From the NCBI RefSeq assembly GCF_000017305.1, contig NC_009664.2, forward strand, positions 420,001 to 452,000: a stretch of DNA of 32,000 nucleotides, in the 5' to 3' direction. Source of the DNA: Kineococcus radiotolerans SRS30216 = ATCC BAA-149. Its GTDB lineage: Bacteria; Actinomycetota; Actinomycetes; Actinomycetales; Kineococcaceae. Numbering within the stretch: the first letter of the stretch is position 1; each line of letters starts with the position of its first letter. Shown here piece after piece: positions 17,498-24,885 of the stretch. The notes under the pieces are model-generated. The model was not told where the DNA came from. It did not search any database and worked only from the letters and a program-made list of their open reading frames with translations. The translations under genes were made by a program, and so were the position numbers.

Positions 17498-18436
17498 GTG
17501 CCGGCCGAGGCCACCACCCGTCCCGAACTCGTCCCGCTCGGGCCCGGCGCCCACGACCTGATCCACTTCTCCCTCGTCGTGGCCGGGTTCGCCCTCCTGG
17601 CCCACTTCCTGCGGACCTGGCACTCCACCGGCGAGGTGAGCGCCCGGTACCGCCCCGCGGTGCTGGCCTCCCTGGCCGTCACCGGCGTCGCGTTCCTCTC
17701 CTACGTCTACCTCGTCCTGGAGTTCGACCAGGGCTACGACCTGCGCGAGGGGGTGTACCAGCCCAACGCCGAGGCCCTGAACACCCTGGTGCCGCGCTAC
17801 ATGGACTGGGCCGTCACCGTCCCGCTGCTGATGGTCGAGTTCCTCGCCGTGTCGGCGGTGGTGGGGGCGGCGGCCCGCCGAACCCGGTTCACGCTGGTGG
17901 GCCTGGCGTTCCTGATGATCCTCACGGGGTTCATCGGTGCCGCGGTGCAGGAGGACGGGACCAGCCGGACCGCCCTGATCGCCTGGGGGGTCGTCTCCAG
18001 CGCGTTCTACGCCGCGCTGCACGTGGTGCTGATCCGGGTGCTGCGCCGGTCCCGGGGCGCGATGGGCGCGCAGGCGTACACCAGCTACCGCAACGCCACG
18101 ATCCTCCTGCTGAGCGTCTGGGGCTGGTACCCGATCGCCTACGCCCTCCAGGTCTGGTTCGGGGGCCAGTGGTGGACGGTGACGATCCAGGTCGGTTTCA
18201 GCGCCGCCGACATCGCCGCCAAGGTCGGCTTCGGTGCGCTGATCCACAAGGTCGCGAAGCTGCGCACGGCCGAGGAGGTCGAGGCGGGGTCGACGACCCA
18301 CCCGGAGGAGGTCTGGATCTCCTCCGTCCGGTTCTCCGAGGGCGTCCAGCCCGTCCTCAAGGGGGTGCTCGGCCCGGACCACCACGACCACCACGGCGGG
18401 CGGGTCGACCCGGCCGGGGACCCCGGGCACCACTAG
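17498..18436 (+). CDS. type-1 microbial rhodopsin (7-TM retinal protein, DTE motif; predicted light-driven proton pump)
   Basis: 312 aa with seven hydrophobic helices. Helix C is R100-YMD103-WAVT107-VPLLMVE114-F (compare proteorhodopsin RYIDWLLTVPLLICEF and BR RYADWLFTTPLLLLDL). Helix F is SVWGWYPIAY (PR GWAIYPVGY). Helix G is AAD238-IAAK242-VGFG (BR DVSAKVGFG), with the Lys codon aag at 18221-18223. AGGAGG lies 4 nt upstream of the GTG start. Confidence 0.85.
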   Translation: MPAEATTRPELVPLGPGAHDLIHFSLVVAGFALLAHFLRTWHSTGEVSARYRPAVLASLAVTGVAFLSYVYLVLEFDQGYDLREGVYQPNAEALNTLVPRYMDWAVTVPLLMVEFLAVSAVVGAAARRTRFTLVGLAFLMILTGFIGAAVQEDGTSRTALIAWGVVSSAFYAALHVVLIRVLRRSRGAMGAQAYTSYRNATILLLSVWGWYPIAYALQVWFGGQWWTVTIQVGFSAADIAAKVGFGALIHKVAKLRTAEEVEAGSTTHPEEVWISSVRFSEGVQPVLKGVLGPDHHDHHGGRVDPAGDPGHH

Positions 18437-20404: not shown

Positions 20405-20707
20405 CTAGGAGGCCAGCCGCTGGCCGGCGCGGGAACCCGCCGCCGCGGGGTCCGCCTCGTCGTCGGGCCGGTTGATCCCGGCCCACACCTCGTCCAGGGA
20501 GAGGCCGAGGACGTCGGCGATGGTCGCGATGGTCGGGAAGGCGGGGGTGGCCACCCGGCCGGACTCGATCTTGCGGAGGGTCTCCGGGGAGAGGCCGGCG
20601 TCGAGGGCGGTCTGGAGCATGGAGCGCGACCCCCGGGCCCGGCGCAGGAGCGCGCCGAGGCGCCGTCCGCGCTCGAGCTCGGCGGGGGTGAGCGGCAGCC
20701 TGACCAT
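20405..20707 (-). CDS. XRE-family helix-turn-helix transcriptional regulator (100 aa)
   Basis: RLGALLRRARGSRSMLQTALDAGLSPETLRKIESGRVATPAFPTIATIADVLGLSLDEVW is a classic Cro/C1 HTH. The C-terminal tail looks disordered. Confidence 0.85.
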   Translation of the reverse strand: MVRLPLTPAELERGRRLGALLRRARGSRSMLQTALDAGLSPETLRKIESGRVATPAFPTIATIADVLGLSLDEVWAGINRPDDEADPAAAGSRAGQRLAS

Positions 20708-20714
20708 GGCCCCG

Positions 20715-20720
20715 ATCGTA
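20715..20720 (-). promoter_or_regulatory. candidate -10 hexamer (TACGAT) for a leaderless XRE transcript
   Basis: The minus strand reads gtaccggTACTACGATcggggccATG. The hexamer ends 7 nt before the ATG, and there is no Shine-Dalgarno sequence. Confidence 0.35.
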
Positions 20721-20790
20721 GTACCGGTACAGTGTTACCGGTATGACTTTACCGGCATGACTTTACCGGTGCACCGTCACCGGTAGGACC
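20721..20790. promoter_or_regulatory. phased array of five 14-bp units, each with a palindromic ACCGG(T/C) core (candidate operator array)
   Basis: The units are gtACCGGTacagtg / ttACCGGTatgact / ttACCGGCatgact / ttACCGGTgcaccg / tcACCGGTaggacc. The cores start at 20723, 20737, 20751, 20765 and 20779, exactly 14 bp apart. The first unit is a 10-bp perfect palindrome, GTACCGGTAC. Units 2 and 3 are identical apart from one base. Confidence 0.6.
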
Positions 20791-20815
20791 GTCTGAACCG
20801 TGCGGAGGACGTCGC

Positions 20816-21604
20816 GTGATCGAGATCCTGAACCCCGGCGAGCTGGCCCGCGCGCGGGAGACCGGCGCCCTGGTCGCCCACGTCCTGCAGACGCTGAAGG
20901 CCCGCAGCACCGTCGGCACCAACCTCCTGGAGATCGACCGGTGGGCCCGGGACATGATCGAGGAGGCCGGGGCGGAGTCCTGCTACGTCGACTACGCCCC
21001 GTCCTTCGGGCGCGGCCCCTTCGGCCACCACATCTGCACCGGCGTCAACGACGCGGTCCTGCACGGCCTCCCCCACGACTACGCCCTCGCCGACGGGGAC
21101 CTGCTGACCCTCGACCTCGCGGTCTCGCTGGCGGGGATCGCCGCCGACGCCGCCGTCAGCTTCGTCGTGGGCGACGCGCGACCCCCGGGGAGCCTGGCCC
21201 TGATCGAGGTGACCGAGCGCGCGCTGAGCGCCGGGATCGCCGCTGCCCGCCCCGGGGCGCGCGTCGGCGACGTCTCCCACGCCATCGGCTCGGTCCTCAC
21301 CGGCGCCGGGTACCCGGTCAACACCCAGTTCGGGGGCCACGGCATCGGTTCGACGATGCACCAGGACCCGCACGTCTCCAACGCCGGGCGCCCCGGGCGC
21401 GGCTACGAGCTGCGCCCGGGGCTCGTGCTCGCGCTGGAGCCGTGGGTCATGGCCGACACCGCCGAGCTCGTCACCGACCCCGACGGGTGGACCCTGCGCA
21501 GCGCGACGGGTTGCCGGACGGCGCACAGCGAGCACACCGTCGCCATCACCGACGACGGGGCCGAGGTCCTCACCCTGCCCGCGGCGGCCGGCCTCCCGGG
21601 CTGA
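20816..21604 (+). CDS. map: type I methionine aminopeptidase
   Basis: 262 aa from GTG 20816 (GGAGGA 6 nt upstream). Metal-ligand blocks in the usual order: GDLLTLDLAV, IAADAAVSF, GHGIGSTMHQDP, LALEPWV, HSEHTVAIT. Confidence 0.9.
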   Translation: MIEILNPGELARARETGALVAHVLQTLKARSTVGTNLLEIDRWARDMIEEAGAESCYVDYAPSFGRGPFGHHICTGVNDAVLHGLPHDYALADGDLLTLDLAVSLAGIAADAAVSFVVGDARPPGSLALIEVTERALSAGIAAARPGARVGDVSHAIGSVLTGAGYPVNTQFGGHGIGSTMHQDPHVSNAGRPGRGYELRPGLVLALEPWVMADTAELVTDPDGWTLRSATGCRTAHSEHTVAITDDGAEVLTLPAAAGLPG

Positions 21605-21621: not shown

Positions 21622-23082
21622 TCAGGTGCCGCAGAAGGTCCGGTAGGCGCCGAAGTCCTCCGGGGCCGGGGCCGCGTAGCGCTCCAGCCCCGGACGCTCC
21701 TCGTAGGGCGCGTCCAGGACCTCCACGAGACGCTGCACCGGGCCGAGGTCACCGCCGGTCGCGGCGGTGAGGGCCTCCTCGACGAGGTGGTTGCGCGGGA
21801 CGTAGACCGGGTTCACCCGGTCCATGGCCGTCCCGTCGGGGCTCAGGGCGAGCCAGCGCTCCAGCCAGTCCCCGAACGCCGGGTCCGCGACCAGCGCGCG
21901 CACGGGGGCGGCGTCCCCGCGCGCCGCGACGGCGAGGGCGCGGAAGAACGACGTGTGGTCGGGGCGGTCGCGGGTGAGCAGGTCCAGCAGGTCCCCGGTG
22001 AGCGGGGTGGTGACCGCGTCCCCGAGGTCGTCGGGCAGGCCGAGCTTGGCGCGCATCCCCCCGGAGTAGGCGGCGTCGTAGCGGGTGCGGAAGGTCCCCA
22101 GGGCCTCGGTGGCGAGGGCCACGGCCTGCTCCTGGTCCTCGTGCAGCAGGGGCAGCAGCGCCTCGGCGAGACGGGCGAGGTTCCACTCGGCCACGGCGGG
22201 CTGGTTGCCGTAGGCGTAGCGCCCGGCGTGGTCGATCGAGCTGTAGACGGTGGCCGGGTCGAAGGCGTCGAGGAAGGCGCAGGGCCCGTAGTCGATGGTC
22301 TCCCCCGAGATCGTCGTGTTGTCGGTGTTCATGACGCCGTGGACGAACCCCACGAGCATCCACCGGGCCACCAGCGAGGCCTGGGCGGCGACGACGGCCT
22401 CGAACAGCGCCAGGGGCGGGTTCGCGGCCGTCGCGGCGGCGGGGTGGTGGCGGGCGGTGGCGTGGTCGGCGAGGCGGCGCAGCAGGTCGGGGTCGCCGGT
22501 GGCGCGGGCGTACTGGAAGCTGCCGACGCGCAGGTGGCTGGCCGCGACCCGGGCCAGGACGGCACCGGGCAGGGTGGTCTCGCGGTGCACCGCGCGCCCG
22601 GTCGCCACCACGGCCAGGGCGCGGGTGGTGGGGATGCCCAGGGCGTGCAGGCCCCGGCTGACGACGTGCTCGCGCAGCATGGGTCCCACCGCGGCCAGGC
22701 CGTCGCCGCCCCGGGCGAACGGGGTGCGCCCGGACCCCTTGAGGTGCAGGTCGCGGACCCGGCCGTGGACGTCGACGAGCTCACCGAGCAGCAGCGCGCG
22801 CCCGTCGCCGAGGCGGGGGGAGAACCCGCCGAACTGGTGCCCGGCGTAGGCCTGGGCCACGGGCTCGGCGCCCTCGGGGACCTCGGTGCCCAGCAGGAGG
22901 CCCAGCCCCTCGGGACCGCGCAACCAGCGGGGGTCGAGGCCGAGCTCCACGGCCAGCTGCTCGTCGAGCACGAGCAGGTGCGGGTCGGGGGCCGCCTCCC
23001 CCTGCCAGGGGACCGCCATCTCGGGCAGTTCCCGCGCGAAGCGGTGGTCGAGGACGATGGTCGAGGACGGTGCCACGCTCAT
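21622..23082 (-). CDS. selO: protein adenylyltransferase SelO (YdiU/UPF0061 family)
   Basis: 486 aa. Motifs: [101 protein letters not shown]. Confidence 0.9.
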
Positions 23083-23199: not shown

Positions 23200-24885
23200 T
23201 CAGGCGTCGATGACGACGGGGATGATCAGCGGCGCGCGCCGGTACGTCCGCCGGGCCCACGAGGCCACGGTGCGGGCGATGACGTCCTCGAGCTGGCGGG
23301 AGTCGGGGTGCCCGTCGGTGGCGGCCCGGGCCAGCGCCTTCTCGATGAGGGGCACGACGGGGTCGAAGGAGTCCCCGGCGTGGACGAAACCGCGGGCCAG
23401 GAAGTCCGGCGGGTCGGCCAGCTGCCCCGTGTCGGCGTCGATGATCGCGACGACGGCGAGGACGCCCTCCTCCGCGAGGGTGCGCCGGTCCTGCAGGGAC
23501 GCCTCGGTGGCTCCCCCCACGACGGAGGCGTCGACGTAGACGTTGTGCACGGGCACCTTGCCCACCACCGACGCCCGGCCGTCGACGAGGTCGACGACGT
23601 GGCCGTTCTCGGCGACCACCACGTTGCGGGGGTCGACGCCGGTCTTGACGGCGAGGTCGGCGTTGGCGCGCAGGTGGCGCGACTCCCCGTGCACCGGCAT
23701 CACGTTGGACGGCTTGACGATGTTGTAGCAGTACACGAGCTCCCCGGCGCTGGCGTGGCCGGAGACGTGGACCTTCGCGTTGCCCTTGTGCACGACGTTC
23801 GCGCCGAGGGAGGTCAGGCCGTTGATGACCCGGTAGACGGCGTTCTCGTTGCCCGGGATGAGAGAGCTGGCCAGCAGGACGGTGTCGCCCTCGCGGACGC
23901 GGATGACGTGGTCGCCGCCGGCCATCCGCGACAGCGCCGCCATCGGCTCCCCCTGGGAGCCGGTGCACACCAGGGTCACCTTCGAGGGCGGCAGCTTCTC
24001 CAGGACCTTGAGGTCCACGACGAGGCCGGCGGGGATCTTCAGGTAGCCGAGCTCCGCGGCGATGCCCATGTTGCGCACCATGGAACGCCCCACGAAGGCC
24101 ACCTTCCGCCCGTGGGCGGCGGCCGCGTCCAGCACCTGCTGGATGCGGTGGACGTGGCTGGCGAAGCTGGAGACGATCACCCGTCGCGGCGACTTCCGGA
24201 AGACGGTCTCGATGGCGGGGATCAGCTCCCCCTCCGAGGCCGTGAACCCCGGCACCTCGGCGTTGGTGGAGTCGGTGAGGAAGAGGTCGACCCCCTCCTC
24301 GCCCAGGCGCGCGAAACCGCGCAGGTCGGTGATGCGCCCGTCCAGGGGGAACTGGTCCATCTTGAAGTCGCCGGTGTGCAGCACCAGGCCGGCGGCGGTG
24401 CGGATGGCCACGGCCAGCCCGTCGGGGATGGAGTGGTTCACCGCGACGAACTCGCAGTCGAAGGGGCCGAAGCGACGCTGGTCGCCCTCGGTGACCTCCA
24501 CCGTGACGGGGCGGATGCGGTGCTCGGTGAGCTTGGCGGTGATGAAGGCCAGCGTCAGCCGGGACCCCACCAGGGGGATGTCCGGGCGCTCGCGCAGCAG
24601 GTAGGGGACACCGCCGATGTGGTCCTCGTGCCCGTGGGTCAGGACGATCGCCACGACGTCGTCGAGGCGGTCCCGGATGGAGGTGAAGTCGGGGAGGATG
24701 ACGTCGATGCCGGGCTGGTGCTCCTCGGGGAAGAGCACCCCGCAGTCCACGATCAGCAGCTTGCCCGCGTGCTCGAAGACCGTCATGTTGCGGCCGATCT
24801 CGCCGAGGCCCCCCAGCGCGACCACCCTCAGGGCGTCTTTGGCCAGGCGCGGGGGGGCGCCCGTGTTCAGCCGTGGAGAACTCAT
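23200..24885 (-). CDS. rnj: ribonuclease J (metallo-beta-lactamase / beta-CASP RNase)
   Basis: 561 aa. Motifs: LRVVALGGLGEIGRNMTVFE, ILPDF, the beta-lactamase motif VLTHGHEDHIGGVPYLL, HTGDFKMD, SGHASAGEL. Confidence 0.95.
   Translation of the reverse strand: MSSPRLNTGAPPRLAKDALRVVALGGLGEIGRNMTVFEHAGKLLIVDCGVLFPEEHQPGIDVILPDFTSIRDRLDDVVAIVLTHGHEDHIGGVPYLLRERPDIPLVGSRLTLAFITAKLTEHRIRPVTVEVTEGDQRRFGPFDCEFVAVNHSIPDGLAVAIRTAAGLVLHTGDFKMDQFPLDGRITDLRGFARLGEEGVDLFLTDSTNAEVPGFTASEGELIPAIETVFRKSPRRVIVSSFASHVHRIQQVLDAAAAHGRKVAFVGRSMVRNMGIAAELGYLKIPAGLVVDLKVLEKLPPSKVTLVCTGSQGEPMAALSRMAGGDHVIRVREGDTVLLASSLIPGNENAVYRVINGLTSLGANVVHKGNAKVHVSGHASAGELVYCYNIVKPSNVMPVHGESRHLRANADLAVKTGVDPRNVVVAENGHVVDLVDGRASVVGKVPVHNVYVDASVVGGATEASLQDRRTLAEEGVLAVVAIIDADTGQLADPPDFLARGFVHAGDSFDPVVPLIEKALARAATDGHPDSRQLEDVIARTVASWARRTYRRAPLIIPVVIDA

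Follow-up and report, generated by a model that had tools for sequence, protein, structure and literature searches.

In the 32,000-nt window analysed here, taken from the chromosome of Kineococcus radiotolerans SRS30216, the 108-bp gap (20708-20815) between a gene for a small XRE-family regulator and the divergent gene for a type I methionine aminopeptidase (MetAP; map) contains five tandem 14-bp units, each built around an ACCGG(T/C) core. Set against ~170 related loci that span a dozen orders of Actinobacteria, this array is, as judged by comparison of sequences, a K. radiotolerans-lineage expansion, from two to five copies, of a near-invariant putative operator. We consider it probable that the array serves as operator to an autoregulatory module of two genes found across the phylum, and that it was enlarged by tandem duplication in one lineage. 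The sequence-only reading that had drawn attention to the gap took such elaborate control of map to be unexpected and, from the 14-bp period of the five sites, suggested wrapping or filament-like cooperative binding. Neither view is borne out: the gene pair is a conserved module found throughout the phylum, two units are its norm, and the phase follows from tandem duplication.

The five-unit array of K. radiotolerans

The elements of the gap and the two genes that flank it are listed below. Repeat units were scored in bits with a position weight matrix (PWM) built from other taxa, on which canonical sites reach a median of ~23 bits and a minimum of 5.3 bits.

20405..20707, minus strand: XRE-family regulator gene, 100 aa, with HTH_31 and HTH_3 matches; the product comprises an N-terminal arm (MVRLPLTP), a five-helix helix-turn-helix (HTH) domain and a disordered tail with terminal RLAS
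20715..20720, minus strand: XRE -10 hexamer TACGAT (candidate), 7 nt upstream of the ATG at 20707
20721..20734, plus strand: repeat unit 1, GTACCGGTACAGTG, holding the 10-bp palindrome and TACAGT; 11.9 bits, second best of the window
20735..20748, plus strand: repeat unit 2, TTACCGGTATGACT; 17.5 bits, best of the 32-kb window on either strand; within the Tandem Repeats Finder call
20749..20762, plus strand: repeat unit 3, TTACCGGCATGACT; 10.7 bits, third best of the window
20763..20776, plus strand: repeat unit 4, TTACCGGTGCACCG; -2.3 bits, background; left half kept, right half diverged
20777..20790, plus strand: repeat unit 5, TCACCGGTAGGACC; -5.2 bits; hexamer TAGGAC, lacking T6
20804..20809, plus strand: map Shine-Dalgarno sequence GGAGGA, 6 nt ahead of the GTG at 20816
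20816..21604, plus strand: type I methionine aminopeptidase gene (map), 262 aa, with TIGR00500 and Peptidase_M24 matches

The sequence-only reading had described the regularity of this region correctly. The cores recur at an exact 14-bp period, as ACCGGT at 20723, 20737, 20765 and 20779 and as ACCGGC at 20751, unit 1 includes a perfect 10-bp palindrome (GTACCGGTAC, 20721-20730), and the gap is less G+C-rich (57% over 20700-20799) than its flanks (73-82%). The autocorrelation of the gap is 0.62 at lag 14 and 0.59 at lag 28; across 20,000 shuffles the lag-14 value was never attained at any lag from 5 to 30. Tandem Repeats Finder called a period of 14 over 20735-20770 only (2.6 copies, consensus TTACCGGTATGACT), and a repeat search recovered the full register as four 26-nt copies spaced by 14, 14 and 14. 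This is the sole five-copy CCGG array in the window, with shuffled windows peaking at four. Because the word ACCGGY itself occurs near expectation across the window (99 observed, 90 expected), the non-randomness lies in clustering and phasing and not in word abundance.

The five units are far from equivalent. Every one retains (G/T)(T/C)ACCGG, with right halves that have diverged: relative to the unit consensus, substitutions across the five units number 2 for the left halves and 13 for the right halves. Each shows one or two mismatches in the KATA part of the motif CCGGKATA that characterises relatives (see below), and GTTATTGG is absent; the cores and the 14-bp spacing are present; Kineococcus relatives also accept TAC for KAT in unit 1. 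Unit 1 is homologous to unit 1 of the canonical two-unit operator. Units 2 and 3 differ by a single base, and on this resemblance unit 3 is in all likelihood a recent duplicate of unit 2. A PWM scan of both strands of the 32 kb yielded no sites of ≥10 bits beyond units 1-3. By these scores units 1-3 are probably sites, and units 4-5 are uncertain as such.

Both promoter hexamers proposed earlier are present. TACGAT, the candidate XRE -10, is the reverse complement of 20715-20720 and abuts unit 1; a -10 element at 7 nt from the ATG fits a leaderless mRNA, and the XRE transcript is accordingly predicted to lack a leader. On the other side TACAGT (20728-20733) is the sole TANNNT hexamer (T1, A2, T6) in the array and the strongest map -10 candidate that this strain offers. 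Because unit 1 alone keeps TANNNT, the map transcript probably starts near 20740, with a leader of ~75 nt containing units 2-5. Unit 5 matches the position of the promoter-proximal unit 2 of relatives, the start codon lying 37 nt from ACCGG in the window as against 35 nt in Kineococcus sp. SYSU DK005, and orthologues carry a purine-rich GGAAGG block where the window has the map Shine-Dalgarno sequence. The array promoters have no recognisable -35, and a scan for consensus sigma-70 promoters and terminators, which demands a -35 element, returned nothing.

The conserved gene pair and its two-unit element

The loci compared came from an identity look-up, from metagenomes (80 loci) and from named genomes (80 loci, >35 genera). 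XRE and map are divergent neighbours in all loci fetched, and the linked MetAP begins MIEIL (131 loci examined for the start), while the flanking genes differ between genera (Streptomyces, Micromonospora and Arthrobacter, for example, have unrelated flanks). The window pair belongs to this actinobacterial XRE-MetAP module, which corresponds to the orthologous group of the Protein Data Bank (PDB) entry 2ofy: its regulator has ~100 aa, >70% identity and the start MVRLPL(T/S), and the divergent gene encodes a type I MetAP starting MIEIL.

In the canonical arrangement the gap usually spans 64-69 bp. Written with the XRE start as CAT at the left, its consensus is CAT GGCTCCG ATTCTA GTA CCGGGATA ATATGG CCGGGATAGT TATTGG, then ~20 variable nt with GGAAGG, then ATG. 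The XRE -10, ATTCTA, is the reverse complement of TAGAAT and reads TATAAT or TACAAT in other orthologues; it lies 7 nt from the ATG, and all 92 unique canonical two-unit loci share its A2 and T6. Next to it stand two direct repeats of CCGG(G/T)ATA at a spacing of exactly 14 bp. When loci were extracted by anchoring on TTATTGG alone, in either unit the CCGG and the A, T and A each recurred in 75-80 of the 80 unique loci. Unit 2 carries the map -10, (G/T)ATAGT. In four loci (L039, L050, L155 and Curtobacterium L140) the map ATG follows 6-7 nt past TATAGT, and because map is leaderless there, the hexamer of unit 2 is fixed as the map -10. These are minimal versions of the module in which both genes are leaderless: the gap shrinks to 45 nt in the first three and to 32 nt in L140, which has one unit, a single TACCGGTA between two back-to-back -10 hexamers.

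From the XRE -10 through TTATTGG each position holds 1.7-2.0 bits of information, and the next eight positions of the map leader hold 0.1-0.5 bits. Because conservation collapses right after TTATTGG, the invariance of the operator points to selection and not to recent transfer. A mobile or plasmid origin was rejected, as a plasmid collection contained no match to XRE at E 1e-20 and the leader next to the operator has diverged; the nearest neighbours of the MetAP are of the same genus in 33 of 43 cases. Plasmid iterons were likewise discarded. The locus is chromosomal (an identical MetAP is encoded on a 4,761,183-bp contig), it has no rep gene, and no plasmid with the XRE was found in that collection; the chromosome of K. 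radiotolerans SRS30216 measures 4.76 Mb (PMC2587704).

The motif is also tied to this gene pair. All 145 double-motif matches in 736 kb of related loci fall at XRE-map junctions, and one extra match, in L013, belongs to a second tandem module. The 8-mer by itself occurs elsewhere in the 736 kb no more often than a hand estimate of chance. The 14-mer is not a dispersed intergenic repeat, a possibility the sequence-only reading had left standing: no copy was found elsewhere in the window or in the 736 kb. The palindromy that the same reading had stressed is no conserved feature, given that 58 of 80 unique loci have the non-palindromic CCGGGA in unit 1. Dyad symmetry fared no better as a candidate feature, with only 1 of 5 complementary pairs in the inner 10 bp of the canonical CCGG-N10-CCGG (consensus); what symmetry there is remains confined to the self-complementary CCGG.

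Several loci depart from the standard arrangement. L008, L090 and L096, which had seemed to be loci without map, were rejected as such, map being present beyond an insertion of ~235 bp that resembles a miniature inverted-repeat transposable element (MITE). This MITE-like element (L008 1225-1480; L096 about 95-350; L090) lies exactly between the XRE -10 and operator unit 1; it has inverted ends GGG(C/G)CTGT(A/G)CGG and CTAG flanks, and it splits the divergent promoters, the unit 1 core being degraded. Streptosporangium vulgare (L090) has two loci with the insertion, and L011 carries a different insertion at the same CTAG. In L013 the whole module is tandemly duplicated: the second copy (685-1013), in tail-to-tail orientation to the first, comprises a truncated 56-aa XRE, a two-unit operator and another map gene.

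Origin and meaning of the expansion

Copy number is strongly centred on two. Under a tolerant unit definition, 158-160 modules have two units, three have one (L086, Kineosporia L138 and Curtobacterium L140), two have three (L078 and Streptomyces pinistramenti L142), and five units occur in nine contigs, exclusively of the K. radiotolerans clade. The nearest outgroups, L175 (MetAP 90% identical; CATGCCGCCGATGGTAATACCGGTACGATCTTACCGGGATGATCATCGG) and Kineococcus sp. SYSU DK005, have two. The question of whether the array is conserved beside orthologous pairs thus receives a divided answer: its two-unit version is present in relatives, and the five-unit version is confined to one clade. Within that clade the array is identical among strains whose MetAPs are 97-100% identical, and in a relative with a 94% identical XRE it differs by two substitutions, both outside the CCGG cores. 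A phase-variable (contingency) repeat was rejected, the same five units being found in nine independent contigs or assemblies.

Because units 2 and 3 differ by one base while units 4 and 5 have diverged, at least two rounds of duplication are indicated. The exact 14-bp phase needs no special explanation, because slippage of a 14-bp direct repeat reproduces it. The history that we favour begins with an ancestral layout of back-to-back promoters in a ~66-bp gap, the second repeat holding the map -10. By analogy with related regulators, XRE would act as a small Cro/CI-type dimer that binds the repeats, occludes both -10 elements and represses map and itself. Slippage in the K. radiotolerans clade would then have raised the number of units from two to five in at least two rounds, keeping the phase automatically, and repressor bound to units 2-5 within the map leader may add occupancy or act as a roadblock, tightening the repression of map. 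A single dimer could span two CCGG cores, 14 bp centre to centre, or two units could be bound head to tail.

Several points weigh against this account. The literature searched yielded no binding, footprint, transcription start or expression data for any member of the family. Direct repeats spaced by 14 bp place sites ~120 degrees apart, and Cro/CI-type dimers usually use inverted repeats. The conserved ATA could partly reflect -10 function rather than repressor contacts. In the window itself no unit out of five is perfect to CCGGKATA, and units 4-5 sit at PWM background. The asymmetry between left and right halves, noticed once the unit frame was already fixed, reaches a binomial p of ~0.004, and ~0.05 when corrected for 14 possible frames. 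Finally, the specificity of the motif rests on the 32-kb window and 736 kb of related loci, so that a wider regulon is possible.

Among the other explanations, the one that deserves most attention, though we rate it as clearly less probable, is a neutral relic, in which slippage added three units without regulatory role: function would rest with the ancestral pair alone, or with units 1-3 alone, and units 4-5 would be copies in decay. Occasional slippage predicts just what is seen, a norm of two units with rare and scattered gains and losses; the exact phase would again be a by-product of duplication, and the scores of units 4-5 lie well below even the weakest canonical site. What a relic explains less readily is that (G/T)(T/C)ACCGG is kept in all five units despite the divergence of the right halves, and that the array is stable across nine contigs, including relatives whose XRE is just 94% identical. 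A cooperative filament or wrapped complex, with XRE dimers polymerising on the five phased sites, perhaps by sharing ACCGGT cores, and giving switch-like control, appears doubtful. Four of the five cores are ACCGGT, neighbouring cores make CCGGTA-N6-TACCGG inverted repeats, and all three single-unit loci carry the palindromic TACCGGTA variant; yet most taxa have the non-palindromic CCGGGA and two units only, units 4-5 are poor sites, and there is no sign of oligomers above the dimer, 2ofy having been handled as a dimer (PMC9861041).

We give little credence to two further readings. The units might be stacked -10-like promoter elements, each after a CCGG, or the site of another protein, given that each canonical unit has an A2/T6 hexamer (GATAAT, GATAGT) and the G at -14 could serve in an extended -10. 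However, neither unit shows variation in the four CCGG bases, nor does unit 1 in its ATA, whereas the T6 of unit 1 is C in ~20% of loci; moreover, the motif co-occurs strictly with this XRE gene, and the adjoining dedicated HTH protein has an invariant recognition helix. An RNA-level element, in which self-complementary ACCGGU cores of the map leader pair (2 with 3, 4 with 5) and control translation or stability, would be just as surprising, if not slightly more so. Exactly these pairings appear in the minimum-free-energy fold (-33.2 kcal/mol), and a long leader is plausible, TACAGT of unit 1 being the array's sole TANNNT fit. That fold has a z-score of only -1.16, however, with 24 of 200 shuffles folding as well; Rfam gave no gathering-level match, and at relaxed thresholds the only match, to a miRNA model at E 0.72, is attributable to chance. 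Other taxa have a leader of ~20 nt or none, with cores that lack self-complementarity.

A further idea, which we regard as improbable, concerns the signal: the XRE-MetAP module could be a homeostat for N-terminal methionine excision with the repressor itself as the sensor. Met-Val is a cleavable but slow MetAP substrate. The repressor, made from a leaderless mRNA with a Met-Val-Arg start, would bind DNA through its N-terminal arm, or be stable, depending on whether its (formyl-)Met is kept or lost; the conserved C-terminal RLAS possibly contributes. Falling MetAP or deformylase capacity would then de-repress the extra MetAP, and the five-site array of K. radiotolerans would sharpen the switch. 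That MetAP cleaves the N-terminal Met of XRE is only a hypothesis.

If the probable reading of the array as an expanded operator is correct, this is in kind an ordinary autoregulated HTH repressor-operator system; the novelty lies in the family, in what it targets and in how extremely it is conserved, and the five-unit array is a local, lineage-specific elaboration without a new principle. MetAP, which is a drug target, belongs to the core machinery of protein maturation, and the module couples a second MetAP to a dedicated regulator. An operator almost invariant over ~40 bp, together with a conserved regulator, implies by its constraint an important signal. The comparative data define the operator precisely, as CCGGKATA-N6-CCGGKATAGTTATTGG, along with both promoters, and the natural variants with one, two, three and five units offer a ready series for relating site number to repression. 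Our searches of the literature turned up nothing devoted to the regulator, to its operator or to the pairing of XRE with MetAP, nor any description of regulation among bacterial MetAP paralogues; an incidental mention occurs in a gene map from Saccharopolyspora (PMC7435583).

The two proteins and their known relatives

The XRE product exceeds the Pfam gathering thresholds of HTH_31 (36.8 bits; cut-off 27) and HTH_3 (33.7 bits; cut-off 23) and has no ligand-binding domain. It is 76-83% identical to 100-aa proteins across Actinobacteria (Streptomyces, Micromonospora, Arthrobacter, Kocuria, Parafrankia, Pseudonocardia, Cellulomonas and others); residues 1-78 are nearly invariant among relatives, and the recognition helix is invariant. 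Among 1.84 billion representatives at 50% identity, 3 clusters match at E 1e-30 and 96 at E 1e-10, and because so few match, the family is compact and isolated. An AlphaFold2 model (mean predicted local distance difference test score 77) places helices at 8-25, 30-37, 41-48, 57-67 and 71-79, with a short arm ahead of them (residues 1-7) and a disordered tail behind (83-100), so that the protein is modelled as a five-helix Cro/CI-type domain. Foldseek matched this model best to 2ofy and then to ClgR, HipB, C.BclI, DdrO and SinR, all of them DNA-binding proteins of the XRE fold.

The start of the regulator is as conserved as its core. XRE begins MVR in every module examined (~177), most commonly as MVRLPLTP. 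Codons 3-4 (window 20696-20707; the same place in all orthologues) are AGG/AGA and TTG, with synonymous sites that are nearly invariant (74-91 of 92 unique loci). Both are rare codons in high-G+C codon usage, and their retention suggests constraint at the nucleotide level at the 5' end of the presumably leaderless XRE mRNA. Gene callers appear often to miss this leaderless start: the XRE genes of L175 (716-931) and L176 (1141-1347) are called from an internal Met, as 71 and 68 aa, and many database fragments of XRE begin at residue 30. At the other end, beyond a variable linker, the motif [RWQ]L[AV]S is conserved in a region that the model leaves disordered (window 20405-20470, residues about 80-100) and may be a degron or a partner-binding motif.

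The map product scores 216 bits against TIGR00500 (type I MetAP; cut-off 171) and starts MIEILNPGE; by our reading of its alignment to solved MetAPs, the metal ligands appear intact. MetAPs linked to XRE are 72-85% identical across orders. Across loci L088-L167 divergence is very flat: two such enzymes from one genus share a median of 87% identity, those from different genera 81%, and the minimum is 70%. For a presumably accessory paralogue, this MetAP is under unusual constraint.

Several characterised systems resemble the module in part. The closest is 2ofy itself, a structural-genomics entry from Rhodococcus sp. annotated as a putative XRE regulator with no assigned function, which is an orthologue of the window protein (E 4e-34 over residues 1-78; 69% identity, template-modelling (TM) score 0.87, root-mean-square deviation 0.9 Å) and has been treated as a dimer in a molecular-dynamics paper (PMC9861041). 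The nearest characterised structural relative is ClgR (3f51, 3f52; TM ~0.6, 28% identity), which is not an orthologue but is also an actinobacterial XRE regulator of proteostasis genes, clp and lon. ClgR activates from a palindromic site and has no linkage to map. Its stability is set via the C-terminal tail; the window XRE likewise has its conserved C-terminal RLAS after a disordered linker.

HipB shares the fold of the window XRE at only ~25% identity, and 4pu4 is a complex of HipA, HipB and operator DNA. The hipBA operon is autoregulated through several adjacent operators over its promoter, with TATCC-N8-GGATA half-sites ~13 bp centre to centre on bent DNA. This nearly equals the 14-bp spacing of the module, but the HipB sites are inverted and the module repeats direct, and the partner of HipB is a co-transcribed kinase toxin whereas that of the window XRE is a divergent MetAP. 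A HipBA operator was therefore rejected, there being no HipA among the neighbours and no inverted TATCC-N8-GGATA repeats. The C proteins of restriction-modification systems (C.BclI, C.AhdI, C.Esp1396I) are small XRE-fold proteins like the window XRE. Their autoregulated transcripts are often leaderless, and their tandem operators are bound cooperatively by two dimers. C-boxes are pseudo-palindromes, however, and the window motif is different; as the flanks contain no methyltransferase or endonuclease genes, a restriction-modification controller was discarded too.

DdrO/IrrE, ImmR/ImmA and CapH/CapP combine, as here, an XRE repressor with a neighbouring metallopeptidase, and DdrO and CapH are weak fold or hidden Markov model matches to XRE. 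The peptidases of those pairs are of the COG2856/M78 type and cleave the repressor, whereas here the adjoining peptidase is a type I MetAP (M24) and the predicted regulated target; an XRE plus COG2856/IrrE-type protease switch was thus rejected. A defence or toxin-antitoxin system was set aside as well: PADLOC gave a weak capH/HTH hit for XRE (E 5.6e-4) and none for the MetAP, and NCBIfam matches to HipB-like proteins and antitoxins were sub-threshold.

Around the module, a bacteriorhodopsin-like gene (17498-18436, plus strand; PF01036, E 2.5e-28) lies three genes from XRE, and genes for SelO (21622-23082, minus strand) and RNase J (23200-24885, minus strand) occupy the other side. None of these three is kept beside the module in the loci of other genera whose gene tables were inspected. 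The neighbours in the window also include a zinc-type alcohol dehydrogenase.

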